Assembly (NCBI GenBank): GCA_030867685.1
Contig: JAQOWU010000007.1
Span: forward strand, 1,302,001 to 1,366,000
Origin: Wickerhamiella versatilis
Taxonomy: Eukaryota
DNA: 64,000 bases
Direction: 5' to 3'
The notes beneath the pieces are model-generated. The model searched no databases. It saw nothing but the letters and a program-made list of their open reading frames with translations, and was not told the DNA's origin. The position numbers and the translations under genes are program-made. The number at the start of each line of letters is the position of its first letter. Position 1 is the stretch's first letter. This document shows, piece after piece, positions 10,128 to 62,848 of the stretch.

Positions 10128-10408
10128 CAATTTCTCAACTGTAGCTTATTCTTGAGACCTTTCGCTGACAAATAGCTGTGACTGAGTCAGGGACTGTTCG
10201 GGGTTGTTGTGACAATCCAAAGTTCCCCCCTACCCTTATTTTGAGATGGTCACATGGCATCAGTTGTGAGAATCATAGCATGCTACTAGTTGCGAATTTC
10301 AGCGATTTTATAGATTGAATTAATCCTATGATGTTTCTACCAGGTTCTTTTGCTAGGTTTGAGACTCATCCGAATATACCTGTAAATATATACTATTGTT
10401 ATGCTACG

Positions 10409-13400
10409 TCATGTGTCCTTTTTATGCATCTCGACGTAACGAGCTGCCTTAGCCTTGACATAGTCCTCACCTTGTTCATCGCCCTGCTCACTCTCGAATT
10501 GTAACCATTTTTTGAAGAACAGTTTGGCCTGCTTCATTGTAAGCTTGCGCGCTATGACCCGCTCCATTAAGGCTGTCACTCTATCCTTGTTGACATGTTT
10601 GATTTCCTGGTCTATATAAACCTGCCAGATGTCGGCCTTCTTGGGGAAAGCTGCGACGAGTCCTTCAAACAAGGTTCGGCCCCGCTCCGAATCACCCAAA
10701 GAGTACTCGTTGCAGGCCGCCTGGATGATAGCCTGTTTGTGGAGCCGCTCTGGAAGACGCTTCAAAGCAGCATCTAATAGTTGACGGGCCTTGTCAGGCT
10801 GTGAATGGTTGAAATAGAATAGTGTAAGTGTGGTCCATACCGTCAGGTTGTCTGACCCGAATTTCCTGCAGGCTGTTTGAAGCGTAGTTCTAGCCTCAAC
10901 ATCATTGTTGGCCTTGGCCCATACGTCAGCCATCTTAAGGTACATAGTTAGTGAGTCCATCTGTCTCGTGGATTCACCAAAAACATCCGCAACAGTGGCA
11001 GATGTGCCGAAGTTAGCCTCCAGATTTAGCCAAGCCACCCATATATTTAAGCGTTCCTTCTCATCGCTTGCCGCTATAGATTCCAGAGCACGTCTTGCGA
11101 TCGTACGAGCGCCGTCAATTTCACCCAGTTGAAGCATGAAAGCCATATACTGCATCCAAACCACAGAACTACCAGGATTCGCGACTAGGAGTCGTTCGAA
11201 ATCCTTCGAGGATTCTGGGATCCGAGACTGAAGCTCAGCAGTCCTGTCTTTGACGAACTCTGGCTTGTGTCGACGCTTACGACGAGGCTCATCATCCTCT
11301 GAGTCTGACTCTGAATCTGAGGACTGATCTGGTTGGTCAAACGCATCACCCCACCCCGCACTAAGTCCTGCGGCTGGTTTAATTTCTTTAACTGCATCCT
11401 CATCCTCATCCTCATCTTCATCAGACGGGAGCTCTAGCCTGATTGACTCTCCTTCATCTGAAGCATCGCTGCTGTCTCCTGACTCAACGGAGATTTCCAT
11501 AGCATCTTCAAGCTGATCAGATCCATCTCTCTCGTCAAGTTCAGAATCAGATTCATCGCCTTGTTCGGAATCATCACCATCTCCAGAGGCCACTTCCTCT
11601 GCTTCATTTAAGTATGATGCCTTCATTCCAAGTGATACACGGCCCTTATCCTTATCCACAGAAAGGACCTTGACCCTAACAGGCTCACCGACAGTGAATA
11701 TCTTTGACAGGTCATCAATGGGTCGATCTGAAATTTCAGTGCGGTGACAAAGACCCGTAAAACCCTGTGGCAGCGTCACCAGGACGCCAAATGGTTCTAC
11801 CCGACGAACTACCCCACTTTCAAACTGGCCCACAGAGACCTGCTCCACAGGTTTCCGACCTGTTATTACACTCTGTTTCAATGAGAGCTCTATCCGGCCA
11901 TTATCGACGCTTATGACTTTTGCCGTGACCACGTCACCCTCGCTCACGAAACTCCGCCAATCTTTCAAATAGGCATCGCTTAATTGAGATATTTGTACAC
12001 GTCCAACCAGATTTGGACCGAGGGATACGAATACGCCATATTCTGCCACATTAGATACGAAGCCCTTGATAGTTTGACCAGCGCTGACATTCTCAACGGG
12101 AGGATACTTAGGTGGCCAGGGAATTAGCTCGTTGAGCTTGAAAGCATCCTTGAGTGGTTTCTTGGGATCCTCAATAACTTCAGTTCCGTGAACCTTAGCA
12201 TGTTGCCGTCCTGGAAGTCGGACCGACAAGGTAGCTGCGCTGATTCTTGTCACTTCTGCGACTGTCGGAGTATCCATACAAGTAACAATTAATGGGTCCG
12301 TGGATTTTACAGTAACCTCCAGTGCCTCACCCACCTTCACATCCTTTCCAGCCAGATCCACTGGCCAAAGGCGTACCCTTGCCGTTGGGCTAAGGTGGAC
12401 CCAAATACCCTCAGTATTTATGTTGTTCACAAATGCTAGTGCTTTAGCACCAACTTCAAGAATTTGAGGTGCAACGGCAGCAAGCTCATAGACAGCATGG
12501 GCACTATTTCTATGCGATATAGGCAAGAAACGGTGATTTCGAGCATCGTGCATGCCCAATATCTTTACACGTAGATGCTGCCCAGCTTTGAACTGGTTCA
12601 ATGGATGCTGGTGATCTTCAATATCATCCCATTTATTGAATAGTAGAGAAACATCTATGCGGCCCTGATGCTCACCCACCCGCACATTTAGCTGGGTATC
12701 AAGCACCTTGGTAATAATAGCATCAGTCTCAGATGATATCTGAAGTGTGAACCGTTCTTTTTCCAGGCTTATGGAGGCCACCTGAACCGCTAAAGACTGT
12801 CCCACAACATATTCCTCCTTCCCTGACGTGGGCATTAAGCCGACCAATTTCCCCAGAGAAACGAAAACATTCGAGGCAGTCACATTGACCACAAACCCCG
12901 GATATTCTGATCCCAGCTGTAAGTCCGTGATAGCCTGAGGTATAGGGTGCGCCAGCATTGAAGGCTTTGCCGTAGCTTCTGTAACTTTCTTATTCGAGAA
13001 AACCAAAGCTTCAATAGTGTCCCCAGGGTTAAATTTTTTATGTCGCTTGACCGCTTTCTCTGCATCGTCATCAAGATGCAATAAAGGTATGAAACCGGTT
13101 TCCCCGTCAAGATCTACCATTACACCATCATTCTTTTTAGCGACAATTGTCGCCTCCACAAAGCTCCCTGGGGATTGAGAGCCCTTCTGGCCCGGTCTGA
13201 CACTCAAAATGAGTCGATTCTGGTCACGGATAGACTGCACCACATATAGACTGACCGTCTGCCCAAGACGAAATAGCTCTTCAGGTTTTGATGGTGGAGT
13301 CTCACCCATTAAATTGAGGGGTAAAAAGCCTCTAATACCATTGAAGAATTCGCATACAGCTCCTCTAGGCTTGAATTGACCCAGAACACCAACAACCTTA

Positions 13401-15373: not shown

Positions 15374-15589
15374 TCAGTCACCACGTTTTTCCAGTGGGTT
15401 GTACAGCAGGAATTTCTCAATAAGATCAACGTGCGTCAAAATCATCCGTCGGCAACAGTACCGCTTGAGCTTCAGCATGTCAAGAGCATCACCCTCGCTC
15501 ACGTTCTCATCCTGCAAGTATTCCAAATACTTTTCCCACTTATCACCCACGACTTTGCCGCATGAGAAGCAGCGAACTGGAATGATCAT
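15374..15589 (-). CDS. RPB10: RNA polymerase shared subunit Rpb10
   Basis: [18 protein letters not shown]...[17 protein letters not shown]. Confidence 0.98.
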
Positions 15590-15625
15590 TCGTCCTGTCT
15601 GACTAAGAGAACAACGCCATCACTT

Positions 15626-17156: not shown

Positions 17157-17370
17157 ATGACTGTAAAAATCCAAGCGATTATGTAATTTTACAGTCCTAG
17201 AAATCCCTCAGTTGATAACTAGAAACCCCTGAAAAATAACTTTTATTTTCGTTGATTGCCCATCTACGAATACAATGCTCTATTTATGCAATGTGGTGAT
17301 GTATTGGCGTTTCATTTATGTAAGTTCTCCAAGTCGTATAATATCCTTACACCTAACTCTGCTCTGACTC

Positions 17371-18528
17371 ATGGCCAAGACGCTAGTCGTCAAGCTGGGC
17401 ACCTCAAGCCTTTTTGATGAAAATACATTAGAGCACAGGCTATCTAATATGGCCCAAATTGTTGAGATGGTGGTGGATCTAAGGAAGCGGGGTTATAATG
17501 TCTGTCTTGTGAGCTCAGGTGGTATCGCTGCAGGCTTAAAGCTTAAAGGATGGAGTCAACGTCCAAAAAAGACTTCACAGGTCCAGGCGCTAGCTGCTTT
17601 AGGGCAGGCATCATTAATGAGGCTTTGGGATGAGCTTTTTCAAAGGTTTGGTATTAGAGTTGGTCAGGTTCTGTTGACGCGGAACGACATCTCTGACAGG
17701 CTTCAATACAAAAATGCTTGCAACACACTCGAAGCTCTTTTAGAAATTGGGGCTATACCTATCGTAAATGAGAATGATACACTGACTGCACAGGAGATAA
17801 GGTTCGGAGATAATGATACTCTGAGTTCAATTGTGGCACATATGCTCGGCGCATCTTCCTTGTTTATTCTAACCGATGTAGACGCACTCTACACGTCTAA
17901 TCCACGGGTGGACCCATCTGCAAAGCCTATACGCGTTGTAAAAGACTTAAACGATATTCAAGCTGACACAACAAGCTCGCCTGGATCTGGTGTAGGTACT
18001 GGTGGAATGGTTACGAAGCTTATAGCGGCAAACCTAGCAACTTCTGCTGGAATTGGGGTCTATGTTTGCCGGTCCTTTTGGGCTAAAAATGTTTCACACA
18101 TACTGAAAGACGTTGAGGATGGAATATCTCCCGAAAAGTCGCATTGGACATACACTTACTTCGTACCGCACGAAAAGGCTATCAAAGATCGGGCTTTCTG
18201 GCTGCTTCATGGGTTACATCCTTCCGGAGTCATTACCATCGATAGCGGTGCATACAAAGCAGTCACGAGGCGAGATCGTGCCGGATTACTACCTGTTGGT
18301 GTGCAGGAAGTTAAAGGAAACTTCCACGAGTCTGAATGTGTTGAAATATGGTGCTCTCAACAGTTGGTAGGCCGCTGTCTTGTAAATTATTCGTCAATTG
18401 AACTTCAAAGAATCAAAGGCCATCGGTCAACAGAGGTAGAGCAAATATTAGGCTACGCAGATTCGGAGTATGTCGCATATCGCGACAACCTTGCATTTTT
18501 CGAGCATCCTGAACTTACGAAGCACTAA
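17371..18528 (+). CDS. PRO1: Glutamate 5-kinase with PUA domain
   Basis: VVKLGTSS, IPIVNENDT, FGDNDTLS, GTGGMVTKL, C-terminal PUA GLLPVGV. Confidence 0.97.
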   Translation: MAKTLVVKLGTSSLFDENTLEHRLSNMAQIVEMVVDLRKRGYNVCLVSSGGIAAGLKLKGWSQRPKKTSQVQALAALGQASLMRLWDELFQRFGIRVGQVLLTRNDISDRLQYKNACNTLEALLEIGAIPIVNENDTLTAQEIRFGDNDTLSSIVAHMLGASSLFILTDVDALYTSNPRVDPSAKPIRVVKDLNDIQADTTSSPGSGVGTGGMVTKLIAANLATSAGIGVYVCRSFWAKNVSHILKDVEDGISPEKSHWTYTYFVPHEKAIKDRAFWLLHGLHPSGVITIDSGAYKAVTRRDRAGLLPVGVQEVKGNFHESECVEIWCSQQLVGRCLVNYSSIELQRIKGHRSTEVEQILGYADSEYVAYRDNLAFFEHPELTKH

Positions 18529-39911: not shown

Positions 39912-39947
39912 GATCAAAGAGTATTACTAATTCTATTCCCCTTAGAC

Positions 39948-48278: not shown

Positions 48279-48448
48279 TGATGACTTGGAAATCAAAGGT
48301 CTGTTGGCCAAAAAAATTAATTAATTTTTCTTTTCAGAGGAGAGGAGAGGCACTTTATACCTCAAACAAGTTAAATTGGGCATTTCAGTCCAATCCAAAT
48401 TTATTTAAATGTCAAAAGCTTCAAGTGCTGGCTTATATGTCATCTAAG

Positions 48449-49823: not shown

Positions 49824-52800
49824 ATGGACCTGCTGGTGCCATTCTTGGCAAAGAGTGCTGACATCCAAGAACTTCTTGGTGAATGCAGGACTTTAGAAGA
49901 TGCTAAGCTACTTTTAGCGGTTTACAGAGCAGCGCCAAGTAACCCCCTAGTGAAGAAACATATTGAGGCGGTAACTTATGATCTTTTGCGTTTTAAGGGC
50001 CACGAGGAAACTCTTTCTTTCCTAGTCGAAAATATAGACGAAGTAAGGGCTCAAACATTATCACACGGTGATACAGATACCTTGACTTATGTGTTCCTTC
50101 ATAAAAAAGCTTCGCCGGATACCGAGGTTCTCAGCCGAACCTGGAATCTTTTGACTGATGAAGATACGGCCCGATCTGCGGCTACTCTGTTGACTTTTGC
50201 ACTTCCTCTTTCCGCACTAAAGTTCAATGCGTGGCCTTATATTAAGGCGGCCATGGATGTTGATCCAAACTCGGCCCTGAAGGCATGGTTGGCATGGTCA
50301 AAAACTGATAACGACGCTTGGAAAGACGACGAGTACTGGGAGATATTACAGCAGCATATCGGACGAAGTTCACTGACTCGAGAAAACACCAAGTATGCGT
50401 TGCAGATAATGCGTCATACGTTTAAGAGACTTCCGGCATCAGTCCACATGAAGCATTTCGACTGGGAGGTAGGCTCAAGTGACTTGTGGTACAGGCTTTT
50501 GACATTAATTGAAATTGTAGGGGTAGACGCTTCCCATAATCAGACTGTTGATAGCGCCTCTAGTATAGTGGCAATCTGCGGGCCCACATCGCCAATTACT
50601 GCATCTTGGATCTTGGTTTTACTTGAGGCTGGTCTTACTTGCAATATAGACCCTGTAAAACAGTTTTTGACTGAACTCATGATGTCATTCGATGCTAGCC
50701 ATCTACAGTATCTTAAAGCTAATCCTGGCTTTGTAGCCAATGTGCTCTTACCGCGAACTGCGCTAGCAAGTAATTTTGTTGTGGATGATGCCAGAAATTG
50801 TGCTTATATAGACCTCTTTTCCAGTTTCATCCAACGAGTGGTAAGAGCTTTTGAGAATGAGGTACCTGCCCTCCTACGAGCAGTCTGTGAAGAGAACTTA
50901 GAGAGAAGGCTAGTTTGGGAAGCGCCACGTCTGTTAATTTGGCAAGTCCTAGCAAAATATTTGGGAGGAATTGATTTTGAAACAGCGAAGCTTGTCGTTG
51001 AGGCAGGTTGTTCTGCTAGTCAGAATTCGCGAGCGGCTCCTCTTGCCATGGCTACTCAACATGCATGTTACACGATAGTTTTTAATAACTTTTCTATGGG
51101 CTCTCCAGAGGAATATGCAGTACTCATAGGTATCATGGGCTCTAATGGACTCGAGTGGATTGATGTGGACCAGGTAGCAAGATGGATACCACACAAGGAG
51201 CTCCCCTCCATGTCTCCGCTCTACAAGGCCATTTCAGATAATTATACGCATGAAGGGCCGGAATTGACAGTCAATATTGACGATCCCGTGGGAGAGGTTC
51301 AAAGGATGAAGCGAAATCGGACCCGTGAAGAGCGCAAAGATGCTGGGCTCCGAGTAAAAAGACTTTTCGAACAACTCGACGATTGCTCTGATAGCCTATG
51401 CCTGGATGCCTTCTCATATGAGGATGCTCGACTAGCCATTCTGCAGTGTTTGAAACGGAGAAATGAACCTTTATCACTGGAACTTCTTCAAGAACTTTGG
51501 GAATATATGAAAGAGACAGGTTTGAGACAAATTGATCGACCCGCACATCATGCACTCATCGCTCTGCTGCCACTTGTCAACGGAAGTTGTGAGCCATTGG
51601 CATTGGAAATCATAAGTGAGTCTTTCGCTCGACGTGATATCCTAGGTCCTCTGGTCGACGCCTTGTATCCGAAGGAGGGAGAATGGGTTGGTAGGGTGAT
51701 GGCATCTGCTTATATGCAGATGCACCTAGAACATCCTGCTTTCTTGATTGACTCGATACTCGCGGAAAAACTTGGTACTTATGAAAGGTTTTGGGGTAAA
51801 CCCGAAAGCTATGCCAAAGCCCGCGCCATTAGCTGGTTCGACAGAAGTTCACCTCCTGCCTTAGGTCTCTGGTTATTCAAATCTTCGAAATTTAAGCTCC
51901 TTAAGCCCGGAAAAAGCCATGATGGAGATGAAGAGCGTATTCGCTGTCTTGCTTACCAGCTTATTTTAATATTGCAAAAACATGGCTCACTAGGTCCTGA
52001 GGTACTACCGCAGTTAGACGTCGCTATTGAAATCGAGACTTCCCCAATGGTGCGCGTGTACATTGAATGGCTTTATTCTCGCCTACTGGCATCAAATACG
52101 GAATATATTGGTCGTGTGACCGGAAAACTAAGCAAGCAATTGGCGCCTCGACTTGTATCATCTTTTGGCCGTATATCAGTGCTCGTAGCCATGGCAACAG
52201 ATGAGCCAGGTCTTTTGGAAGGGATTGTGAGCAACCTATTACCTCTTGCGACTAACAACCGTGCGCAAATAAGACACTTTGCCCAAGGCTGTCTTTATGC
52301 CATGTCACACATACCGTGCTTGCTGCGCCAACTTAATGAGCCTTGGCGAAGTCTTGTGGTAGATACCGGAGAGATTACTGGGATGATGGAAAGCTACAAG
52401 GATTTTAAACCGGGAGATGAACTGTTCTGGGATATCTCTGATACTCGTCTCGGCCCAATCTGTGGTGGCATTGTCTCTAAGGTTATGGATAATCGAACGC
52501 CTCATGACTATCTGACTGTTTCTGATCTAGTTCGGTTTTTGGGTGGAACTAAAGAAGATTACGGTGAAGGCTGGCAGCCTGTTCCTAATGAGTCTATGGC
52601 TTTGTGGCAGCACCTTACAGCGATAAAGGGAGATAACGAGCCTCTGCACCAAATTCAGACAAAGGCAGCGGCGGAGTATATGAAACGTTCTGATCTGGTT
52701 GTTGTAGCCTCACTGTGCGACCTTGTTCCTAACCTCGGAGGAATATGTCGTCTGTGCGATGCTCTCGGTGTAGGTGAACTTGTCTTGAACTCTCTTGCAG

Positions 52801-53147
52801 TTACCACCACGCAACAATTCAAGTCTACGGCAGTTAGTGCAGATCGCTGGATGCCAATGAGGGAATGCAGCATCCCCAATTTGCCTGCATATCTAACTGA
52901 AATGAAGCGGAATGGGTTCACTTTGGTTGGACTTGAGCAAACAGATTCTAGCCGTGTTCTCAGCTCTTCTCTAAAATTCCCAAAGAAAACTGTTCTGTTG
53001 ATCGGTCGTGAACGTGAGGGAATAGATGGGGATCTTCTAGCATTGCTTGATTGGTGTGTGGAGATCGAACAAAAAGGAGTAGTACGTTCCATGAACATTC
53101 AAACAGCCACAGCAGTGCTTGTACACTCCTACAACCAACAATCATAA
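49824..53147 (+). CDS. TRM3: tRNA (guanosine-18-2'-O)-methyltransferase
   Basis: Long helical N-terminus plus C-terminal SpoU domain (LVVVASL..PNLGGICRLCD, GLEQT, GREREGI, RSMNIQTA). Confidence 0.92.
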   Translation: MDLLVPFLAKSADIQELLGECRTLEDAKLLLAVYRAAPSNPLVKKHIEAVTYDLLRFKGHEETLSFLVENIDEVRAQTLSHGDTDTLTYVFLHKKASPDTEVLSRTWNLLTDEDTARSAATLLTFALPLSALKFNAWPYIKAAMDVDPNSALKAWLAWSKTDNDAWKDDEYWEILQQHIGRSSLTRENTKYALQIMRHTFKRLPASVHMKHFDWEVGSSDLWYRLLTLIEIVGVDASHNQTVDSASSIVAICGPTSPITASWILVLLEAGLTCNIDPVKQFLTELMMSFDASHLQYLKANPGFVANVLLPRTALASNFVVDDARNCAYIDLFSSFIQRVVRAFENEVPALLRAVCEENLERRLVWEAPRLLIWQVLAKYLGGIDFETAKLVVEAGCSASQNSRAAPLAMATQHACYTIVFNNFSMGSPEEYAVLIGIMGSNGLEWIDVDQVARWIPHKELPSMSPLYKAISDNYTHEGPELTVNIDDPVGEVQRMKRNRTREERKDAGLRVKRLFEQLDDCSDSLCLDAFSYEDARLAILQCLKRRNEPLSLELLQELWEYMKETGLRQIDRPAHHALIALLPLVNGSCEPLALEIISESFARRDILGPLVDALYPKEGEWVGRVMASAYMQMHLEHPAFLIDSILAEKLGTYERFWGKPESYAKARAISWFDRSSPPALGLWLFKSSKFKLLKPGKSHDGDEERIRCLAYQLILILQKHGSLGPEVLPQLDVAIEIETSPMVRVYIEWLYSRLLASNTEYIGRVTGKLSKQLAPRLVSSFGRISVLVAMATDEPGLLEGIVSNLLPLATNNRAQIRHFAQGCLYAMSHIPCLLRQLNEPWRSLVVDTGEITGMMESYKDFKPGDELFWDISDTRLGPICGGIVSKVMDNRTPHDYLTVSDLVRFLGGTKEDYGEGWQPVPNESMALWQHLTAIKGDNEPLHQIQTKAAAEYMKRSDLVVVASLCDLVPNLGGICRLCDALGVGELVLNSLAVTTTQQFKSTAVSADRWMPMRECSIPNLPAYLTEMKRNGFTLVGLEQTDSSRVLSSSLKFPKKTVLLIGREREGIDGDLLALLDWCVEIEQKGVVRSMNIQTATAVLVHSYNQQS

Positions 53148-53232
53148 TAAAATTTGTCCATATTGTAAGATAATAACGTGCCGAGTGATATTTTGAGTTA
53201 GTTAGGCTATGCATAGTATAGACAGAATTATA

Positions 53233-54033
53233 TTATTCGACGAAATGTTCGATAATTGAGGGTGCAGCGGCCTCGATTAAGTCATAGGCAGTAAAAACTA
53301 AACGCTGGTCAAAAGGCCCCGAATAGGACCCTGTTCCTATGTCAATTGTTCGCAAAGGGGCCGCTATATGCCCATCTTTCCAGGTTATGCATATGGCTGC
53401 CTCCGCGACGGTTTCTTCAGCATCAGTGGGATCTACCAAGGCTGTTGGGCCTACTAGGGCCACTACAAATAAAACAGGAGGCGTCCATCCATCACAGAGC
53501 GGCACCGAAAGCGACCAGTCATCGTTGAATTGAGGAATTTCATCTACAGGCGTATCTTCTGAAGATTCGATTTTCAAGGGAAGGCGGGTCGCTTTAAGGG
53601 CCTGAAAAACTCCTGCAGAGACGAGACCCAATGGATATGAAGTATAAGATAAAATGACACAATCCACGTACAATTTGAATGCATACGTGGGTGTAATATA
53701 CAAGGCATTTTGTAGTTGAGGGCAGGCATAAAGCGCCTGACTGAGAGAAACTCCCAGGCTTTGAGGCAAAGAATCTGTGTCCTTCTGACCTGGAACCTCC
53801 ACAGAAACTTCAACTAGGTCATTGTGGCTAGCTGTTACTTTTGCCTTGACACCCACGATGCATTCCGCACCATCGGCAGTTTTGACAGAAGCACTGCCGT
53901 TGGTCATCGGTAAAATATCAACATCCGTTTCAAGGGGACGGAACTGTCCTACTCTACGACTGTCCAGTCGTACAGGCGTACTATTTGCCAGTGATTGACG
54001 AAGGTACTCCTGCTCGGTGACCGAACAGAGCAT
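53233..54033 (-). CDS. RRP42: Exosome core subunit Rrp42 (RNase PH fold)
   Basis: EYLRQSL...RLDSRR..QFRP, NGSAS, VGVKAKV, FKLYVDCVIL, ALKATRLP. Confidence 0.88.
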   Translation of the reverse strand: MLCSVTEQEYLRQSLANSTPVRLDSRRVGQFRPLETDVDILPMTNGSASVKTADGAECIVGVKAKVTASHNDLVEVSVEVPGQKDTDSLPQSLGVSLSQALYACPQLQNALYITPTYAFKLYVDCVILSYTSYPLGLVSAGVFQALKATRLPLKIESSEDTPVDEIPQFNDDWSLSVPLCDGWTPPVLFVVALVGPTALVDPTDAEETVAEAAICITWKDGHIAAPLRTIDIGTGSYSGPFDQRLVFTAYDLIEAAAPSIIEHFVE

Positions 54034-54075
54034 ATGACTAACTAGTAAGTGGTATAGGATGGTTATTGAAAAAAC

Positions 54076-54534
54076 ATGTCTATTCTCGACCAGTTAAGTG
54101 ATTCATTTTCGAAATTTATGACTGTGGATGAAAACGATGAGCCCGTGATATCTTATGAAAACCTTCCAAGGGCATTAGAGGAGGCCGGGTTGCCACATGA
54201 GCTAGGTGCCAAGCTAAAATCTCGCATGGACCCCGAAAACTCAGGCTATATTACCTTCGAGAATTTCGTGTCTGTGGCCGTGGATGTATCGCAAAAGGAA
54301 CCGCCTTCCTATGTTTTCAAGCTCCTAGCAAATCCCCAAACTCACCGCCTATCTCAGGATAGCATTCTAAAGACCGCGGAACGACTTAAAATACCCATCA
54401 CCGCTCAAGATGCAGTAAAACTTCTTGAAATGAGTGGTACAACCCCCAAATCGTTTGCTGCTTTGCAACGGCGTTTAGATAATGTGTTTGGACCGGAAGT
54501 AGGCGCGGAGGTAGGTGATCTGCCAGACACCTAG
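54076..54534 (+). CDS. Small EF-hand (centrin/calmodulin-like) protein
   Basis: EF loop MDPENSGYITFENF, flanked by degenerate EF-hand helices. Confidence 0.65.
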   Translation: MSILDQLSDSFSKFMTVDENDEPVISYENLPRALEEAGLPHELGAKLKSRMDPENSGYITFENFVSVAVDVSQKEPPSYVFKLLANPQTHRLSQDSILKTAERLKIPITAQDAVKLLEMSGTTPKSFAALQRRLDNVFGPEVGAEVGDLPDT

Positions 54535-55095
54535 AGCGATAAAACTTAGGAAAATAATGAAGAAAAACTTTTTGACACGACTATTTGTGCTCTCGTTAGT
54601 ATTTCTCAGTCTCTCCTCGCGAGCTTTAAGGTATTCAAGACTATCCTTGATCTCCTCAGCTGTTTCCGAAATCCTACGAAGTTCTACCTCCGCAGGGGCT
54701 AGTCTCTCAGCTGCCCGAACAGCGCTCCAATCACGCGCTGCAGCACCAATCTCTACCTCAATGTCCACATCACGGTAAAGGCGCTGCGGGATGTGTCGTG
54801 CAGTGGAAATACGCTTGTTCTCGAAACATATGTCAAAGCTCGTGTCTGGAACTGGTGAAAAAGTAAAAACGGCCTGACCGAGCAAGGATTGACGATAAGC
54901 AAGAGTACTGCCCCGAGCGTCGATAATATTCATGGATAGCTCCTGTCCATCCCCTTGTATTCCATATGTATGTGTCTTTACAATCACCAACGACTCCTGA
55001 CCAACAAAATCCCGAATGCAGCGTTTGCTATCAGCATCAACGCTAAACTTGAGTGCCTGCACAACTGTTGCGAGCAGAAGCCACAAGAAATTCAT
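54475..55095 (-). CDS. ERV25: p24 delta family cargo receptor
   Basis: Signal peptide, GOLD domain, REERLRNTNESTNSRV, TM, YLRAYFRSKHII. Confidence 0.95.
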   Translation of the reverse strand: MNFLWLLLATVVQALKFSVDADSKRCIRDFVGQESLVIVKTHTYGIQGDGQELSMNIIDARGSTLAYRQSLLGQAVFTFSPVPDTSFDICFENKRISTARHIPQRLYRDVDIEVEIGAAARDWSAVRAAERLAPAEVELRRISETAEEIKDSLEYLKAREERLRNTNESTNSRVKKFFFIIFLSFIALGVWQITYLRAYFRSKHII

Positions 55096-55448
55096 TTAGA
55101 TGAAGTGGCCTGTCTTATGTCAGAAACGCGCTATAAAGGGTGGGCGCGTGCCGACATCAGGATCAAGCTGAAGAGTAAGAATGCAAAAACATAAGATATA
55201 ACTGGTGCTTCTAATATATAGTAACGATCTTTTTCCAGACTCAAACTTCATGCTGATAACGCCGTAACCAAAATATTCGTAACTAGAGTTAAAGCACTAA
55301 AAGGAGAATATTTCTCGATCTACACATATTGTGGCGGATTTTTATCATTCGGAATGAAGGCTTTGAAAGGGGAGAATGTTTCAGGTTTCCTATTAACCAT
55401 TTCCATCTCGACAACCATCTGACTAATAAATATATATCGTGACTGGTC

Positions 55449-58421
55449 ATGAGTGAAGAGGTTAAGGATGAGTTGCCGGTGGAGGGTAAGCCGGCAGCAA
55501 CTCCTGGACCTATAGAGTCAAAACCAGAGGAGAGTGGTGGCCAGGCATCTCCTCGCGAATCGGATGCACCTGAACCTCAGGGGAGTGAGTCAACGACTGA
55601 TCCTTCAGGAAGTGCGCCACAGGAAGATGAGGCAACAAATGGATCAGGTGGGGTAAAAGCGAATCAGGATAGTAATGATAATGATCAAGACGATCAAGGA
55701 GAAGAAGACGAAGAGGACGATGGCGAGGATGGCGAGGATGGTGAGGACGATGACGACGAGAGTGGTGAAGAAGAAGAAGATGATGATGAGGAGAACGAAG
55801 ACTCCAACCAGCCCTCAAAACGCCGTCGATTGAGGCGAAACCAGTTTTTGGATGTGGAAGCCGAGGTAGATGAAGATGAAGCCGAGGAAGAAGAAGAGGA
55901 GGGCTTCGGCAAGGATGATGGCTTCATCCAGGAGGAGCCTGAACCTGAAGAAGGAGCTGAAGCTGCCGCCCATGAGCGTATTTACCGTCGTGTTGATAGG
56001 CATGATGATATTGCTGAGGGTGATGCTGAGGAGCTGGCTGAAAGATATAGGGAGAAGTATGGCCGTATTTCTGCATCGAAGTATCATCAAGATGGTTATG
56101 TACCTCAGCAGCTTCTCCTCCCATCAGTCAATGACCCGGCCATTTTTGGTATCGGCGCTCGTCTAGGTCGAGAAAAGGAGATTGTGCGTGCTGTTTTGCG
56201 CAAGAGTCTTAGTCTCCAGTACACGGCGTCGCCCCTCAATATATACTCCGTGTTTCAGCGTGATGCATTCCCTGGAAGAATATATATCGAAGCACCGAGC
56301 CAGGCGGCAGCGATTCATGCCTGTAGTGGTGTACCAAACGTCTATACTACGTCGCGGATTGTTAAAGTACCAATCAAGGAGTATCCAGATATGTTCAGGG
56401 TTCATAAAACACAAGATGTTGAACTCACCCCTGGAACATATGTGCGAGTCAAGCGTGGAAAATATGCTGGTGACTTGGCTGTTGTCGAGAATTTGAGTGA
56501 AAACGGTTTAGAGGTCAAGCTACGTCTAGTACCTCGACTAAACTATGGGCGTGTTGTAGTAGATACTGCAGAAAAAAGAAAGCGATCCGAGCGTCCTCCA
56601 CCCCGGCTTTTCAATGCGCAGGACGCAACGCAGAGCGGTGGTTCGCTCCAGAAGCACGGACCAACTTCATATGTCTTCGAGGGCGAAGATTACGACAATG
56701 GATTTTTGCTCAAAGATTTTCGACTGGCGTATATTCAACTTGATAACGTGAACCCGACTTTGGGTGAGATCACGGCGTTGAAAGGCTCGGCTGATGAAGG
56801 TCTTGATCTTCAGGCCTTGCAAGACTCTCTGCGGCATACTCAGCCGGCCCAGTTCAAGGCTGGCGAGGCCGTGGAGGTCACTCAGGGAGAGCAGACAGGA
56901 TTACAAGGTAAAGTGGTTGGCACATCTGATGATATTGTTCAGGTTGAGGGTGATGACATTAAAGTCAGTGTACCAGCGAGTCACCTCCGCAAACACTTTG
57001 CAATTGGTGATCATGTTCGTGTTATGAGGGGATCATCGCGCGACGACACTGGTCTTGTTGTCTCAAGGGATAATGACTTCGTTACCTTTTTGAGCGACAC
57101 TAAAGGATCCGAGACCACTGTATTTGCTCGTGACTTACAAGTTGCAAGTGATACCGCGCAGACATCGAGTGTCGGTAAGTACAACATTCATGATCTTGTC
57201 CAGTTGAACGCACAGACGGTCGGGTGCATTGTGGGAATAGAGCGTGATCGTGTGAAGGTATTAGCTCAAGATGGACAGTTGGCGACAGTTACTCCTCAGG
57301 CAATTGTAATGAAAGTTGTTAATGGACGTCAACTGGCTACCGATGCCCATGGAAGACAGATTGAGATTGGTGACACGGTGCGTGAAATTGGCGGTGAGCG
57401 TAAACAAGGCGCCATCCTACATTTGTACCACCAATTTGTTTTCCTACATAATCGCGAATTGACGGAAAACTTAGGTGTTTTCGTGACTCGTGTCTCCCAG
57501 GTAGCAACAGTGGCAACGCGTGGAGCTCGGGCTGAGCGTGGCTTGGATTTGGCTCGTATAAACCCATCAGTAGCTGCAGCCAATGCCGCATCTCAGCAAT
57601 CAATGGGACCACCACCTCAACGTGCCACATTCAATACGAGGCGAATGCTCGGAGTCAAAGTTTCGATTGGACCTGGTTCTGGATACAAGGGACTAAAGGG
57701 TATTGTGCGAGACGTCAATGAAACAAGTGCACGTGTTGAACTCGAAGCCAAGAATAAAGTCGTTACAGTCAATGTTCAGAAGCTACTATTTTCTCAAAAT
57801 GGGAATATGGTCCCTTTCCGAGAGTTTGTTATGCCAGCACGTCGCGAATTCGGGTCTGCGACACCCCGTGTTCCTGCGACACCATCTATGTCGGGTGCTG
57901 GCAATGCTGGAGGAGGAGGAAAGACTCCTGCTTGGGCTGCCTCAGGGAAAACACCTGCTTGGAATGGTGGTGGCAAGACGCCTGCTTGGAACGCTGGAGG
58001 CGCCAAGACTCCTGCATGGGGTGCTGGAGCTACAACCCCGGCCTGGAACGCTGGTGGCAAGACGCCTGCTTGGAATGGTGGTGGTGGACAAACTCCAGCC
58101 TGGAATTCTGGAGGGAAGACGCCGGCCTGGAACGCTGGAGGAGGACAAACTCCAGCATGGAACGCTGGAGGCAAGACACCGGCCTGGAACGCTGGAGGCA
58201 GGACACCTGCATGGAACGCGGGCGGAAAGACACCAGCGTGGAGTTCTGGTGGCTCCGCTCAAACACCATCATGGTCTTCTAATGGCGGATTCTTTTCTGC
58301 ACAAACACCAGGTGTTGCACCGACTCCAGCTGCTTATGACAGTGCGCCGTCACCGGCACCTGCGAAGACGCCCGCAGCATGGGGAGATGACGCTCCAGCA
58401 TACGAACCTGAAAGTCCATAA
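55449..58421 (+). CDS. SPT5: Transcription elongation factor Spt5
   Basis: Acidic N-terminus, FLDVEAEVD, NGN domain LLLPSVNDP, KOW domains, C-terminal TPAW repeats. Confidence 0.97.
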   Translation: MSEEVKDELPVEGKPAATPGPIESKPEESGGQASPRESDAPEPQGSESTTDPSGSAPQEDEATNGSGGVKANQDSNDNDQDDQGEEDEEDDGEDGEDGEDDDDESGEEEEDDDEENEDSNQPSKRRRLRRNQFLDVEAEVDEDEAEEEEEEGFGKDDGFIQEEPEPEEGAEAAAHERIYRRVDRHDDIAEGDAEELAERYREKYGRISASKYHQDGYVPQQLLLPSVNDPAIFGIGARLGREKEIVRAVLRKSLSLQYTASPLNIYSVFQRDAFPGRIYIEAPSQAAAIHACSGVPNVYTTSRIVKVPIKEYPDMFRVHKTQDVELTPGTYVRVKRGKYAGDLAVVENLSENGLEVKLRLVPRLNYGRVVVDTAEKRKRSERPPPRLFNAQDATQSGGSLQKHGPTSYVFEGEDYDNGFLLKDFRLAYIQLDNVNPTLGEITALKGSADEGLDLQALQDSLRHTQPAQFKAGEAVEVTQGEQTGLQGKVVGTSDDIVQVEGDDIKVSVPASHLRKHFAIGDHVRVMRGSSRDDTGLVVSRDNDFVTFLSDTKGSETTVFARDLQVASDTAQTSSVGKYNIHDLVQLNAQTVGCIVGIERDRVKVLAQDGQLATVTPQAIVMKVVNGRQLATDAHGRQIEIGDTVREIGGERKQGAILHLYHQFVFLHNRELTENLGVFVTRVSQVATVATRGARAERGLDLARINPSVAAANAASQQSMGPPPQRATFNTRRMLGVKVSIGPGSGYKGLKGIVRDVNETSARVELEAKNKVVTVNVQKLLFSQNGNMVPFREFVMPARREFGSATPRVPATPSMSGAGNAGGGGKTPAWAASGKTPAWNGGGKTPAWNAGGAKTPAWGAGATTPAWNAGGKTPAWNGGGGQTPAWNSGGKTPAWNAGGGQTPAWNAGGKTPAWNAGGRTPAWNAGGKTPAWSSGGSAQTPSWSSNGGFFSAQTPGVAPTPAAYDSAPSPAPAKTPAAWGDDAPAYEPESP
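57918..58275 (+). repeat. Spt5 CTR coding repeat (GGKTPAWNA-like, 27-30 bp units)
   Basis: 12 TPAW plus one TPSW unit in tandem. Confidence 0.93.
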
Positions 58422-58501
58422 ATGTTATTGGTAGCTATCATGCTAAATGTCGGATGACTCTAGTATTAGTTCACGTTTATAATTTGCTTTAAAACGATAT
58501 G

Positions 58502-58530
58502 AAAAAACAAAAACAAAAACAAAAGCAAAA
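58502..58530. repeat. Short (AAAAAC)n microsatellite between SPT5 and MRPL39
   Basis: aaaaaacaaaaacaaaaacaaaagcaaaa. Confidence 0.6.
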
Positions 58531-58582
58531 ATGAAAATAAACCGTTTGCCTAAGATGCTTGCACATCCAATCTATATACAAG

Positions 58583-58819
58583 TTAATTAATTCGAGTACC
58601 ATTTTTGTCGTAAGTAGCGTTCCTAAAGTTTGGAGGATTGCGAGCTTCCACTTTACGCTTACGCCCCTCGACAAAAAGCACATGTCGCATCGCGATCGGA
58701 TCATAACGGGTTTGCGTCATCGCTGGGCAGTTACGTGGCCTGTGCACATACCGGGTGTAGCCTGTCTTCGCCACAGAAACTAGCTTGATCAGAGTCAAGC
58801 GGGAGCGGTTCTTGGCCAT
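58583..58819 (-). CDS. MRPL39: Mitochondrial ribosomal protein bL33m
   Basis: IKLVSVAKTGY...RYDPIAMRHVLFVE L33 motif. Confidence 0.88.
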   Translation of the reverse strand: MAKNRSRLTLIKLVSVAKTGYTRYVHRPRNCPAMTQTRYDPIAMRHVLFVEGRKRKVEARNPPNFRNATYDKNGTRIN

Positions 58820-58868
58820 ATATTACCTGACTAATCAAAGGACACTCGAGGCACCTAAGTTGAAATAT

Positions 58869-60617
58869 ATGGCTGCAGCATTTCTCGACTTACGATTTCC
58901 CACCTTGGCATCTGTAGAAAGTCGGTTGGAGGTTGAAGGGGAACGTATAGCTTCTGAACGATCTCAATTGGAGGCTGAGGAAAAGCAACAGGAAAAACAG
59001 CGCGAGGCTGAGGCAGAAGTTGCGACAGAAGAGGTCAGAAAATTAGTTCGTGTGTGCATAGACAGCCATGGTGAGGGGTCTGAAGAGGTTCTCCAACGTT
59101 TACCTGCAAAAATAAACCACAGGGCTCGTGCTAAGCTGTCGGAGGTGCTTAAATTACGAGACTTGTGGGAATCCACCAAACTTTACGAAGATGTTCAGAA
59201 TTTATTGCAGCATTTAGAAGGGTTGTCAATAGAAAAACAGGCGATTGAGTATCCCAATGTCGATAAACTCCGTATTGCTCTGGCAAAGGACTGGCTTTCC
59301 CAAAAAGGGGCTGATCTCGCTATGCAAGCTACAGATAAAATCTCTCAGTTCTGGATGACGCTATGCTCAGAGCTCAGAAAAGCATTAGAATCATCACTGG
59401 GTGACTGGCCGAAAGTAAAGCCAACAGAAGAATTTTGGCATCTGGCCGAAGTTGCCGAAAATGTGGACACTTTAGTGGTCTATGACATACTAGCACAGCC
59501 TTTGGTCAAGCGAATCAAATTTCACTTTGGTAATCCCCGTCGCGATACACATCGTCCTGACAAGCCTCAGTGGATGCTAGATTTTGTCCTGAGAAAACAG
59601 CTGGAACCTGCTCGCGAAATGGGCGTTAATCCAACAAACTTGTGGGAAGCACTTTGCCCATATGTAGTGGATTCTCTATGCGAAAACTATCCAGATGCCC
59701 CGCTAAATGTCCATGAGTCCGAGGTCTTCGATACTGCAGCTACGGAACTAGGCATTAAGACAAATCTTACTGCAGCATACGTACCGAAGATTGAGGATGA
59801 ATTTTTGAGAATCGAATCAATACGGATCCTTGATTCACTTAATGGTGTTTTGGATGATTCAAGCGCAGACGATGTGGATTTCGATTGGAGTGGACCGACA
59901 AAACCAACATTCGGAGCTCACAATGCTATGCGGATCTGGAAGGACGCTCTCGGGTTAGTGCGCGGCCTTCCGTCGAGTACACAACATCTTGCGACGGAGT
60001 ACTGGTTGAGGCCATTGCTTGATAAATTATACTCCCGCTATGTAACAGCGTCAGAGACCTCCGATATCGAGAAACTTGTATCTACGCTGGGCTCTGTTTC
60101 ATATGTTGAGACAGTGCTCCGCACCTATGGAGCCGTCGAGGTGCTCATTCCAGAATCATTTGAGGATATTGCCGAGAAGTTTTCCCTGTTCCGGGATGAA
60201 GTTGCACACCAAGTTGCCCGTGTCTTGCGACGCGAACTACAGAGTCAGTTGAGAATTTATTTTACGGTCGATTGGTCCGGAAATGAGGTATACACGCCAC
60301 TTGGTGCATCATTGGATCATATAGGGAGTGCAGTGGACAGAGTATCGCGTGTGACAGGCCCCGCTGACTTTTTATCTGTCATAATACCATTCTCCTCGGC
60401 TGTTTCTGACATATGGTGGCGCTCTGTTATCCAAGCGAATGTTTTTTCCGTTGCGGGAGGGCTGCGTTTACTTGAAGATATTGATGCAATGTGGACCCGT
60501 TTTCGCCTTGCGCCGGCGCAAGGCAAGCGTATACGCTCTGCGGCATCATATTTAGCTGGCGAGTCTGCTGATCTCTCTGAGGAGGACTTGTCGAGTCTTC
60601 GTCGAAGACGTATTTAA
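58869..60617 (+). CDS. TIP20: RINT-1/Tip20 family tethering subunit
   Basis: RIKFHFGNPRRDTHRPDKPQW and FSVAGGLRLLEDI match RINT1/TIP20 patterns; first ATG at 58869. Confidence 0.72.
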   Translation: MAAAFLDLRFPTLASVESRLEVEGERIASERSQLEAEEKQQEKQREAEAEVATEEVRKLVRVCIDSHGEGSEEVLQRLPAKINHRARAKLSEVLKLRDLWESTKLYEDVQNLLQHLEGLSIEKQAIEYPNVDKLRIALAKDWLSQKGADLAMQATDKISQFWMTLCSELRKALESSLGDWPKVKPTEEFWHLAEVAENVDTLVVYDILAQPLVKRIKFHFGNPRRDTHRPDKPQWMLDFVLRKQLEPAREMGVNPTNLWEALCPYVVDSLCENYPDAPLNVHESEVFDTAATELGIKTNLTAAYVPKIEDEFLRIESIRILDSLNGVLDDSSADDVDFDWSGPTKPTFGAHNAMRIWKDALGLVRGLPSSTQHLATEYWLRPLLDKLYSRYVTASETSDIEKLVSTLGSVSYVETVLRTYGAVEVLIPESFEDIAEKFSLFRDEVAHQVARVLRRELQSQLRIYFTVDWSGNEVYTPLGASLDHIGSAVDRVSRVTGPADFLSVIIPFSSAVSDIWWRSVIQANVFSVAGGLRLLEDIDAMWTRFRLAPAQGKRIRSAASYLAGESADLSEEDLSSLRRRRI

Positions 60618-60719
60618 AAATTCAGCGTAAACTATGTGGCTTAAGATATAGTATCGCTATGAGACCAACCAGGACAACTACCTAGTGGTTAATTAAGCGT
60701 TTTTAATTCTAATCAATTT

Positions 60720-62504
60720 TCATCTCGGAAGCATTATGTCGTGTGTGGCTTGGCTCGTAGTAGTGGTATTAGTATTGATACTCGGCTCGCTGTCTGTGGA
60801 TGTACCCCACCTTCTCTCGCATGATATTTCCGTGTAAGGAGACAGGGGTTCTGTACTTGATGGCGTTGAGAAATGTTCTTCAACGAGATGCCTTATAACT
60901 GGCCAGCCATATGCATTACTGAATCGTCTTCTAACAACTATATTGTTGTGAGCTTCAGGTAACAGCTGAACCAAAACCTTTCGCCAACTCATGTCGTGAT
61001 GATAGGCACGGGCGATCCTCTCTTCTATATGAGCGCTCTCAACTTTTTCTTTTTGAAAAGACGGCAATACAAAACGCTCTTTGAAACGGCGGTCTGGTAG
61101 GTCCGATTCCTTATAAATTCTATCATGGAATATCACGTCTGAGCGTTCTGAAGGGTCTGCGACGAACCGCTGATCAGGATGTGGTGGGCGCCAAAGCAGC
61201 AATCCACTCTCGATTAGTGAAGTCTTCCGTGGAAGTGGCATTTCATCCAGTTCAGCAGTGTCATTTGTCCGCGTTTGAGATCGCCGAATCATGCTGTGTG
61301 ACACAGTGCGTTCGAAATTAGGGAGCCATTGGGTCTGAGGCCTTCCAGCAACAATCTCAGCACGTCCAATTGCTTGCCAGTCAAGAAATAGGATTGAAGA
61401 TGTCCTTAGAGGGACAATACCATCATTGACAGAGTTCGCGTAGACTGTACGTTTTTGAAATCTCCTTAAAACCGTGTGCACTTGATTGTTCTTGGGTAAC
61501 CGTTCCAGCAAAGGATCCTTGTTAGGACTCCAGCTTAAACCCAAATCGCGACCCGTTTTTCCTACCACGCCAAAATCAAGAGCAAATCGGACATATCCTG
61601 GATTTTCATGAGAGATTCCTAAGAACGGCGACGCAAGTGTTATAAATGATCCGAGTTCTATCTTTGAAAAAAATCCTGGTTGTAAGGTCTCAACATAACC
61701 AAGCGCATATGTTTGGATGAGCCCGCCAAGACTATGAGCCACAAAGCTCAGCTTTGCAGGACGATATGCAGGGTAAAGCTCATCAACAATCCAGCGAGCG
61801 ACGCGCCTCCCAAGCCATTTCACGCCTTTTCCGGTATGACACGCATTGCCAGTATAGCCACGACATATTAAATTCTCACCCGATTTTTCTGCTCCTGCAT
61901 CAATACATTCCTTGAGATAATGCATATCAGCTGTTACATTCGACATCAGACCGTGTGTTAAAATTACAATATGCAAAGGTTCATCTTTGCGCGGACGTGG
62001 AATCTGCCACAGAACATCTGTGTCTTGTAGATTAACCTTAAACTCCAAAGCTCTACTATCTGCAGATAACATTCCTGCATGCTTTGTACTCTTGCGTGAT
62101 GTACCTATGACAATCTGGTATTCTGCTGAAGCACTTTCGTTGAATAATGCTTCGGAGATAATGTCGATTAACCAGACGTGTTGATGGTTTCCCGAGATGG
62201 GTAACTGAATACACCAGTGACTCGCTGCATGAAGATGATTTTCATATCGAGGCTGTTCTGATTCATCCACTACTTTATTTGCTTCTTGGTAAGACAGAGG
62301 TCTCATGTCAACATAGAGAGAAAATGGGCCCTGAAGATACGCGGCGCGCAGCGGGAGTGTTTCAAGGTTCTTGACCCGAAGCCACAAGCATGGGCGGGCA
62401 CATTCGGGAATTGGGGTATAGCTGACCGTATATCGGCACAATTGGCCTAATTTAAGACGGGACTGGGACTGGAAAAGAACGATCCCAGGATCCTCATCGT
62501 CCAT
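60720..62504 (-). CDS. DUF676 serine hydrolase/lipase (Rog1/Ydl109c-like)
   Basis: LRAAYLQGPFSLYVD, ILTHGLMSN, SFVAHSLGG nucleophile elbow, YANSVNDGIVPLRTS, AHNNIVVRR. Confidence 0.88.
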   Translation of the reverse strand: MDDEDPGIVLFQSQSRLKLGQLCRYTVSYTPIPECARPCLWLRVKNLETLPLRAAYLQGPFSLYVDMRPLSYQEANKVVDESEQPRYENHLHAASHWCIQLPISGNHQHVWLIDIISEALFNESASAEYQIVIGTSRKSTKHAGMLSADSRALEFKVNLQDTDVLWQIPRPRKDEPLHIVILTHGLMSNVTADMHYLKECIDAGAEKSGENLICRGYTGNACHTGKGVKWLGRRVARWIVDELYPAYRPAKLSFVAHSLGGLIQTYALGYVETLQPGFFSKIELGSFITLASPFLGISHENPGYVRFALDFGVVGKTGRDLGLSWSPNKDPLLERLPKNNQVHTVLRRFQKRTVYANSVNDGIVPLRTSSILFLDWQAIGRAEIVAGRPQTQWLPNFERTVSHSMIRRSQTRTNDTAELDEMPLPRKTSLIESGLLLWRPPHPDQRFVADPSERSDVIFHDRIYKESDLPDRRFKERFVLPSFQKEKVESAHIEERIARAYHHDMSWRKVLVQLLPEAHNNIVVRRRFSNAYGWPVIRHLVEEHFSTPSSTEPLSPYTEISCERRWGTSTDSEPSINTNTTTTSQATHDIMLPR

Positions 62505-62848
62505 AGTATAGTCAGCTGACTAATCTGATGTCCCATCAGCACCGATATTATCTATTTGACATTCGGTGGATGTACAGTGTGTGTTTGGCACTGATACACA
62601 ATCGTAAGTATATAAAAAACACGCGTCCATTAGAGACTATACCTATGAGCTGGTACGTGGGTGAGTATTACTACCCAACCGGCTATTTATATAGTGCTTT
62701 GCATAGACATGATCTTTAGAAGAACAGGATATACTTGAATTTTCATTTTCAGTGATCTCACCTAAATACTATCCCCCCAAATTTTTAGAGAGGGCCGCAT
62801 GCGTTACTTTTAGTAGTATTCGTATATAATAGGTAGCTCACCAGCAAA

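Follow-up and report, generated by a model that had tools for sequence, protein, structure and literature searches.

The closest described counterparts of the DNA element reported here are the sites of the fungal regulators Yap1, Pap1 and Cap1. TGACTAA, TTAGTCA and TTACTAA are named as Yap1 sites in a review (PMC6545440), and TGACTAA is the SV40 AP-1 element through which Yap1 was found. In a 64-kb stretch of yeast DNA from contig JAQOWU010000007.1 (the whole of which we call the window), the heptamer family T[G/T]A[C/G]T[A/C]A (TKASTMA) resembles these elements in using the identical words TTACTAA and TGACTAA, as given in that review, and in its overlapping half-sites and A/C flanks. The known elements act from further upstream and on a few dozen stress genes, whereas the window sites are found at roughly two in five genes, of unrelated function, stand at a median of 13 nucleotides (nt) from the start codon, at or beside the start site, and are purged from open reading frames (ORFs). 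Our results indicate that the element is genuine and selected, that about 40% of the window genes have it in their core-promoter zone and that it is kept out of coding DNA. The half-site architecture fits MTKASTMA, the consensus of Candida Cap1, and 16 of the 19 loci that match it in the window lie outside ORFs.

General regulatory factors such as Reb1, Abf1, Cbf1 and Tbf1 provide a second comparison, as their sites likewise place one word at many unrelated promoters. The general factors described so far belong to the Myb, bHLH or zinc-cluster classes, and to our knowledge none of them is a bZIP protein. Those parts of Tsankov et al. (2010, PMC2897762) that bear on the subject describe a turnover of general factors between budding-yeast lineages and novel nucleosome-depleted motifs specific to Yarrowia lipolytica, among which the present word may already have been described. 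In the portions of the literature examined, which cover a minority of the work mentioning TGACTAA, start-proximal general use of TGACTAA/TTAGTCA is undescribed. The HomolD box of fission yeast (CAGTCACA) shares the core AGTCA with our element but is orientation-dependent and has no dyad. It is a specific word that replaces TATA near the start site of TATA-less housekeeping promoters. We rejected a HomolD reading of the window, in which CAGTCAC is not positioned and has 10 of its 14 copies inside ORFs. Initiators (YYANWYY or TCAGTY) are similar in that, at the 58828 copy, transcription starts on an A after a pyrimidine within the word, but the window word has a far higher information content, a dyad symmetry and a variable distance to the ATG. 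The plant telo-box and the mammalian TISU are also specific words that mark the start site, or positions just past it, in housekeeping genes whose leaders are short; their sequences and factors are unrelated to those considered here, and the position of TISU on the AUG is fixed, whereas the distance of the window motif varies.

The window is densely coding. Thirty-eight non-nested ORFs of at least 100 amino acids (aa) cover 84.8% of it, and two short genes, RPB10 (15374-15589) and a 78-aa ORF (58583-58819), bring the set to 40 ORFs. Head-to-head gaps from ATG to ATG measure down to 28, 36, 42 and 49 nt, and each of these four gaps (8129-8156, 15590-15625, 54034-54075 and 58820-58868) holds one bZIP-type dyad. 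With a single tiny gap per head-to-head pair, the paired promoters must overlap, and the 5′ ends of both mRNAs may overlap as well. The PRO1 product shares 65% identity with that of Wickerhamiella sorbophila and 59% with that of Starmerella bacillaris, which assigns the window to a yeast from the Wickerhamiella/Starmerella clade. A preprint gives a genome-wide mean intergenic length of 370-549 bp in three species belonging to it (10.1101/399394). Scans of the window for tRNAs and for Rfam families returned no match, and when relatives of the window were sought in metagenomes with SPT5, none of the 116 pattern matches was confirmed.

The original prediction, made from the letters of this DNA, had held that an AP-1-like TGACT[A/C]A element stands next to the start codons of many unrelated genes, and it had called for an analysis of positional enrichment. 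All statistics given here refer to the one 64-kb window. Over its full length the words are not enriched relative to dinucleotide shuffles: TGACTMA (TGACTAA and TGACTCA) occurs 17 times against 20.3 ± 4.6, TGACTAA alone 7 times against 9.4, and TKASTMA is in deficit (21 against 36.5 ± 6.5, all 100 shuffles yielding at least 21). We defined the start zone as positions −70 to +6 of the 38 longer ORFs, which amounts to 2,794 nt or 4.4% of the window. All seven copies of TGACTAA fall within this zone, where 0.28 would be expected (binomial P=1.7e-10), and an unbiased scan of 8,149 heptamers identified TGACTAA as the one most concentrated there, in agreement with what had been predicted. Corresponding fractions for other words are 3/3 for TTACTAA, 7/12 for CTGACTA and 4/10 for TGACTCA. 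In non-ORF DNA, CTGACTMA is present 8 times against 0.61 expected, a count reached by none of 1,000 shuffles.

The 21 family loci divide into five within ORFs, all of them TGACTCA, and 16 outside. The distances of the latter to the nearest facing ATG are −1, −1, 1, 8, 9, 10, 12, 12, 14, 22, 26, 36, 39, 55, 97 and 389 nt. Their median of 13 nt compares with 54.5 nt when each non-ORF site is moved at random within its own intergenic interval (P=0.0014, 5,000 trials), so that short intergenic DNA alone does not explain the proximity to start codons. Sites continue to hug the ATG in intergenic intervals of 200-425 nt. TGACTCA, the Gcn4-type word, bears much less of the signal than the TTA-containing words of Yap type. 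The earlier assignment of the motif to bZIP sites is supported for the Yap/AP-1 class, whose words are those given in the review (PMC6545440).

Avoidance in coding DNA was measured with frame-preserving null models because TKASTMA holds stop codons in three of the six frames. Only 5 family copies are found in ORFs, against 22.9 expected from codon shuffling within ORFs and 28.9, 22.9 and 21.6 expected from codon-phase Markov models of order 1, 2 and 3, respectively. To control for composition, the seven symbols of the pattern were permuted and all 1,260 resulting patterns scored identically; TKASTMA was the most depleted of them under every model, by 4-5-fold; its ratio of observed to expected copies is 0.17-0.23, that of the next lowest pattern is 0.38-0.49 and the median is about 1.0. 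The TTA-containing words TGACTAA, TTACTAA and TGAGTAA are each absent from ORFs, where 3.4-6.2 copies are expected, and TGACTCA is mildly low (5 against 7.7-11.6). No single heptamer is significantly depleted by itself in the 54 kb of ORF, and the claim of depletion is therefore made for the family. In non-ORF DNA the family is enriched twofold (16 copies against 8.0) and ranks third of the 1,260 patterns, the two ranked above it being the same motif shifted by one base.

The twelve exact copies of TGACTAA and TGACTCA that had been pointed out from the sequence all lie at the coordinates given for them, and six variants (at 1309, 39924, 8142, 1526, 26998 and 42137) are likewise correct in sequence and position. 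That inventory was incomplete, as it lacked five TGACTCA copies located in long ORFs (11480, 28209, 29238, 39369 and 55586). Eleven of the twelve lie 0-55 nt from an ATG, and the copy near RKI1 (40909) lies at 97 nt, which agrees with the statement that all but the latter are found within about 60 bp. Among the TGACTAA copies, two read tCTGACTAAg: one at 15600-15606 (+) occupies a 36-nt gap, 10 nt from the ATG of RPB10 (15589, −) and 19 nt from that of a rhomboid protease (15626), and one at 24588-24594 (−) is located 14 nt upstream of the eIF3a ATG (24573). The copy at 38484-38490 (−; aCTGACTAATG) provides, with its final A, the A of the ATG of a FLILHELTA/MRX11-like gene. In a 42-nt head-to-head gap, the copy at 54035-54041 (+) is 1 nt from the ATG of ORF 53233-54033 (−) and 34 nt from the ATG of an EF-hand gene (54076). 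SPT5 has its copy (tCTGACTAAT; 55420-55426, +) 22 nt upstream of the ATG, and the copy at 58828-58834 (+; cCTGACTAAT) lies 8 nt from the ATG of the 78-aa ORF (58819, −) and 34 nt from that of a RINT1/TIP20-like gene (58869). The last copy, at 62517-62523, is part of the near-palindrome TAGTCAG|CTGACTA (62509-62523) and stands 12 nt upstream of the ATG of a DUF676 lipase-like gene (62504, −), to which the left arm of the palindrome approaches within 4 nt.

TGASTCA words form a second set. A perfect dyad, CTGA(C/G)TCAG, spans 10182-10190 with its heptamer at 10183, 54-55 nt upstream of a bHLH (PHO4-like) ORF. The copy at 17365-17371 (+; tCTGACTCATGG) overlaps the PRO1 ATG, which is a genuine start given that the kinase domain begins at residue 3. 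Three copies on the plus strand read TGACTCAGC; they are found 97 nt upstream of the ribose-5-phosphate isomerase ATG (40909-40915; ATG at 40811, −), 26 nt upstream of a PX/Vps5 sorting-nexin ATG (45308-45314; ATG at 45281, −) and 9 nt upstream of the ATG of a CH-domain (BIM1-like) gene (47453-47459). TTACTAA, which reads TTAGTAA on the other strand, is present in its Yap-type form at 1309-1315 (+), 39 nt upstream of the ATG of a Yap1/Pap1-like gene, and as TTAGTAA at 27813-27819 (+), 36 nt upstream of ORF 27856-28404. At 39924-39930 (+) it belongs to the dyad ATTACTAAT (from 39923), within a 36-nt gap between tandem minus-strand genes and 12 nt upstream of the ATG of an AP-complex mu subunit (39911). 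Finally, an 8-bp relative, TTACGTCA/TGACGTAA, with the palindromic flanks TCTGA...TCAGA, occupies 8142-8149 in the 28-nt head-to-head gap between RPB6 and a C2H2 zinc-finger gene. This CRE/Yap-A-type word TGACGTAA has two copies, at 8142-8149 and 38594-38601, both intergenic and on the promoter side; the copy at 38594 generates a GTAAGT that resembles a 5′ splice site.

All 21 family loci consist, by definition of the family, of TTA/TGA half-sites that overlap at the central C/G. A dyad of TGA/TTA half-sites overlapping in this way is the hallmark of a bZIP dimer site. The positioned words are TGACTAA (7 sites), TTACTAA (3) and TGASTCA (5), and their aligned optimum is C-TGACTAA-T, the left C being present in 6 and the right T in 4 of the 7 TGACTAA sites. 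Over the 15 sites the left flank is A/C in 14 and the right flank T/G in 12; for eight of them (five TGASTCA and three TTACTAA) the orientation was our choice, which inflates the left-flank count. The orientation of the seven TGACTAA sites is set by the word itself, and every one of them has A/C on its left side, the sample being small. Extended dyads are seen at three places (10182, 39923 and 62509), along with the palindromic flanks of the 8-bp relative at 8142. Four of the five positioned TGACTCA copies read TGACTCAG, three of which correspond to TGACTCAGC, while none of the five ORF copies does so. An apparent strand bias of CTGACT, 9:1 in favor of the forward orientation at first, fades once RPB10 and the 78-aa ORF are counted; outside the very short head-to-head gaps, about 7 sites are forward and 2 reverse, a difference that lacks significance. 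We also rejected the idea that the word serves as a three-frame stop or as a terminator of upstream ORFs, given the presence of sites in both orientations, the dyads and leaders too short for upstream ORFs.

A family site is located at most 70 nt from the ATG of 17 of the 40 ORFs, and two further ORFs share the 8-bp relative. According to Pfam, the genes concerned encode RPB10, a rhomboid protease, glutamate 5-kinase (PRO1), eIF3a, a FLILHELTA protein, an AP-complex mu subunit, a PX/Vps5 nexin, CH-domain and EF-hand proteins, SPT5, a RINT1/TIP20-like protein, a DUF676 esterase and a bHLH factor. The claim that they are unrelated is upheld by the diversity of these functions, and no classical antioxidant gene is found among them, so that the site is not restricted to stress or detoxification genes. 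A consensus TATA box is present in none of the 17 motif-bearing ORFs against 4 of the 23 others, a difference that is not significant (Fisher P=0.12), and we do not retain a link between the motif and the lack of TATA. The window itself encodes a Yap-family bZIP protein that is a candidate for reading the motif: the ORF at 112-1269 (−; 385 aa) is a Yap1/Pap1 orthologue with bZIP_1 (E 1.2e-6) and PAP1 (E 1.9e-20) domains. Its basic region contains QNRAAQRAFR, residues that we take to be the Yap signature, and both Cys-rich regions are present, including the one at the C-terminus. The location of a Yap-type site (1309-1315) upstream of this gene suggests that the gene is autoregulated; the original prediction had given the site without recognizing the gene.

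RNA reads from four runs were aligned to positions 43001-63000, which hold six of the twelve exact sites. These runs share their species label with DNA runs containing 93-98% of the words sampled from the stretch, and their reads are 95-100% alike to the window. The approximately 456 fixed differences in 20 kb indicate that the RNA strain is about 2% diverged from the window. Transcription start sites were taken, using the best-supported ends only, from reads that run into an adaptor-like tail beginning with CCC in two poly(A) libraries (X12 and X13). We take this tail to be the reverse complement of the template-switching oligo, which presumably marks the capped 5′ ends of minus-strand mRNAs. 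Two such ends belong to the 78-aa gene, at 58832 (−; 103 reads in X12 and 59 in X13; leader of 13 nt) and at 58828 (−; 96 and 67 reads; leader of 9 nt), and they correspond to the two A residues of TTAGTCA on the transcribed strand of this gene, each following a pyrimidine. A third end, of the p24/EMP24 mRNA, is located at 55106 (−; 65 and 42 reads), 11 nt before the ATG, and CTGACATAA, a relative of the motif that is one base longer, sits 10-18 nt upstream of it. The three bases preceding each of these ends are not G-rich, which makes strand invasion unlikely.

The 5′ untranslated regions (UTRs) measured in this way are 9-13 nt long. With leaders of about 10 nt, a site at the median distance of 13 nt from the ATG would sit at about −10 to +10 of the start. 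Since two capped 5′ ends lie inside a single copy, the element is in the core-promoter zone, and to this extent the suggestion that it might act as a core-promoter element is borne out by the 58828 copy. Its other suggested role, that of positioning the start site, would have to accommodate a distance to the ATG that varies from −1 to 55 nt. Other molecule ends, at 54068, 55455, 55091 and 62496, were too ambiguous to be assigned. A tagged end at 48464 (+; 44-50 reads), in the GAL7 3′ region, was discarded as an artefact of strand invasion, as the genome reads ATGGG there; it is a warning for start-site mining of these libraries. A GGGGT shortly upstream casts doubt on the ends at 49483 and 49480, and they were not used as start-site evidence. 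Read pile-ups and poly(A) tails point to 3′ UTRs that measure about 9, 17-21 and 32 nt in three genes and about 110 nt in RPL44. Tight transcript ends were noted at 58574-58832, 55095-55106, 48428-48451, 58421-58453 and 62740-62849, and transcripts appear to be extremely tight at both ends.

We favor, tentatively and with somewhat less than even confidence, the reading that the element is a selected promoter element with the optimum C-TGACTAA-T, a dyad site of the Yap/AP-1 bZIP class used as a general regulatory site. A bZIP dimer would be its most economical reader, in view of a dyad structure, of words identical to Yap sites and of a Yap-family gene being present, and a role resembling that of a general regulatory factor is suggested by its use at about 40% of promoters and its purge from coding DNA. 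Use by a large share of unrelated promoters and avoidance in coding DNA are both expected of such a factor, and within the window both are observed (17/40 ORFs; 5 copies against 21.6-28.9). According to this model, a constitutively nuclear Yap-family bZIP dimer, either the Yap1/Pap1 orthologue of the window or a paralogue, would occupy the sites and keep the tiny promoter open in the manner of a general regulatory factor. The bound protein would help the initiation machinery to assemble alongside, such that transcription would start within the site or a few bases from it, and stray copies within genes would be purged as they would create cryptic promoters or roadblocks. A stronger version, which we consider rather doubtful, holds that in the Wickerhamiella/Starmerella lineage a Yap-type bZIP protein and its site were promoted from a stress switch to the main start-proximal organizer of TATA-less housekeeping promoters. 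A single dyad word would then mark, open and help fire some 2,000 minimal promoters, a few of them head-to-head and only 28-49 bp long, with starts inside or beside the bound site.

Several observations weigh against a general bZIP-bound element. The Yap1 orthologue retains both Cys-rich regions of a redox-gated, normally exported factor, which fits a stress switch better, and the identity of the bound factor is purely inferred. A bZIP dimer sitting on a start site (58828-58834) or on an ATG (17365 and 38484) should hinder initiation or elongation unless it is displaced. Direct start-site evidence comes from one exact site (58828, one of the twelve listed) and one variant (p24), and the RNA reads are those of a strain that differs by about 2% from the window. 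TGACTCA alone is weakly positioned, with 5 of 10 copies in ORFs, the distance to the ATG is variable (−1 to 55 nt), and the sample amounts to 64 kb.

The main rival explanation, which we regard as unlikely, is an initiator-type core element read directly by TFIID or RNA polymerase II without any bZIP protein, transcription starting on its A residues. The tagged ends 58832 and 58828 on both A residues of TTAGTCA, each after a pyrimidine, are what it predicts; TTAGTCA fits 6 of the 7 positions of YYANWYY, the classical initiator consensus; sites that abut or overlap the ATG (17365, 38484 and 54035) are easiest to understand if the start lies in the word; and the purge from ORFs would follow from avoidance of cryptic starts. 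Yet initiators are degenerate, unlike the exact 8-9-mer that recurs here, a dimeric binder is suggested by the dyad variants and the symmetry of the flanks, and the related word of p24 lies 10-18 nt upstream of the start, not on it. The molecule ends at 54068 are a weak indication of a minus-strand start about 27 nt upstream of the word, and pyrimidine-purine steps are, in the consulted part of one survey, a general start preference of yeasts (PMC7849388). A second rival, to which we attach a smaller probability, is a greatly expanded and otherwise ordinary Yap1 regulon responding to oxidative or chemical stress, whose sites, those of a conditional activator, would lie close to starts for no other reason than the tiny size of promoters and UTRs. 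The words match Yap1 sites exactly according to the cited review (PMC6545440), a redox-type Yap1 orthologue lies in the window with its own site 39 nt upstream, and head-to-head gaps of 28-49 nt force any site near an ATG. This explanation is difficult to reconcile with 17 of 40 genes, including RPB10, eIF3a, SPT5 and an AP subunit, which far exceeds a stress regulon, with sites that still hug the ATG in intervals of 200-425 nt, and with a strong purge from ORFs that we consider typical of general factors rather than of conditional activators.

Three other explanations are much less probable. A telobox read by a Myb-type factor of the Tay1/Tbf1 class, which we consider highly improbable, would draw on the fact that the Y. 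lipolytica telomere repeat, given as TTAGTCAGGG in the excerpts consulted (PMC6282006, PMC7857110, PMC12412787), contains the heptamer, that 6 of the 7 window copies continue TTAGTCAG, and that telomere-binding Myb proteins double as promoter factors in other fungi (Teb1; PMC7857110, as excerpted). The flanks, however, do not run into the G-run of TTAGTCAGGG: the copies continue with GG in one case of seven and with GGG in none, GGG being the part favored by Tay1-type proteins according to the same excerpts, and the variants TGACTCAG, TTACTAA and TGACGTAA as well as the dyad symmetry would be left unexplained. There is only a very slight chance that the pattern has no function and is a by-product of stops in the word (TGA, TAA and TAG), of TpA avoidance in coding DNA and of very short intergenic DNA. 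Stops do fall in three of six frames, ORFs make up about 85% of the window, and over its whole length the count is not raised; on the other hand, nulls that preserve the frame, codon usage and the phase-specific di- to tetranucleotide content expect 21.6-28.9 copies in ORFs against the 5 observed, the other 1,259 patterns are less depleted, and the words are enriched in non-ORF DNA and close to the ATG within their own intervals. CTGAC and ACTAAC resemble fungal branch sites, and the original prediction had itself named branch points of 5′ introns as what would refute it. We give next to no credence to such introns, whether in the 5′ UTR or just past the ATG. GTAAGT is indeed found 45 nt upstream of 17365 and 107 nt upstream of 38484, but splicing at either site would delete the ATG and conserved N-terminal residues. 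No splice joint was detected in 43001-63000 in the four runs, at a depth of about 4-500 per bin (mostly 10-100) and with no spliced gene in that region to serve as a positive control; the lack of joints skipping them indicates that the six sites located there are not branch points of spliced introns, and for four of the six sites located elsewhere, neither strand contains a GTRWGT at up to 400 nt. The branch-point explanation is thus largely refuted, that is, refuted for six sites and unlikely for the rest.

An open question in the evolution of yeast gene regulation is what factors define promoters and by what route this role is transferred between DNA-binding families. Should the reading as a general bZIP-class site be correct, a stress-factor site acting at the start site would be a new case of rewiring; in the stronger version given above, yeasts would have a general regulatory factor or core-promoter element of a new class. 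One would also learn how functional promoters with leaders of 10 nt are accommodated in 30-50 bp of a eukaryotic genome, and industrial Starmerella and Wickerhamiella strains would gain a compact, portable promoter part. A very large Yap1 regulon, if that were the explanation instead, would be unusual as well.

Other features of the window deserve mention. GAL7 (−) lacks the motif and is very highly expressed in all four runs. In the region 49478-49520 it carries TATATAAT 32 nt upstream of its apparent start, an arrangement like the "classic" mode with TATA at −30 that the consulted part of Lu and Lin (2021, PMC7849388) describes for Yarrowia and fission yeasts. The tagged ends of GAL7 fall 3 and 0 nt before the ATG, and the next in-frame Met is residue 76; either its mRNA is almost leaderless or these ends are artefacts of strand invasion. 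A 114-aa ORF (49498-49842, −) lies 17 nt upstream of the GAL7 start codon and overlaps by 19 nt the start of a 1,107-aa ORF (49824-53147, +). RNA depth drops about 20-fold from the bin that holds most of the 114-aa ORF to the next one, and this ORF is probably not a gene. The largest gap of the window (35475-36537; 1,063 nt) is AT-rich and contains no ORF and no tRNA or Rfam match; it holds TGAGTAA at 36142, the sole family site far from an ATG (389 nt), and is followed by an ORF of 434 aa (36538-37842) that belongs to no Pfam family. Close to the 3′ ends of two convergent genes, the RNA strain shows a 10-nt unmatched stretch before 53507 (7 reads in X9 and 23 in X13), and most of its reads lack 1 nt at 53149; both features resemble strain differences. 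Finally, of 13 telomere-like CCCTAA/TTAGGG words, five (1483, 15338, 27314, 7354 and 38583) lie in the 15% of the window that is not ORF, and two of the copies read CCCTAACC; these words may be candidate promoter sites of Tbf1/Tay1 type and thereby a second candidate general element.

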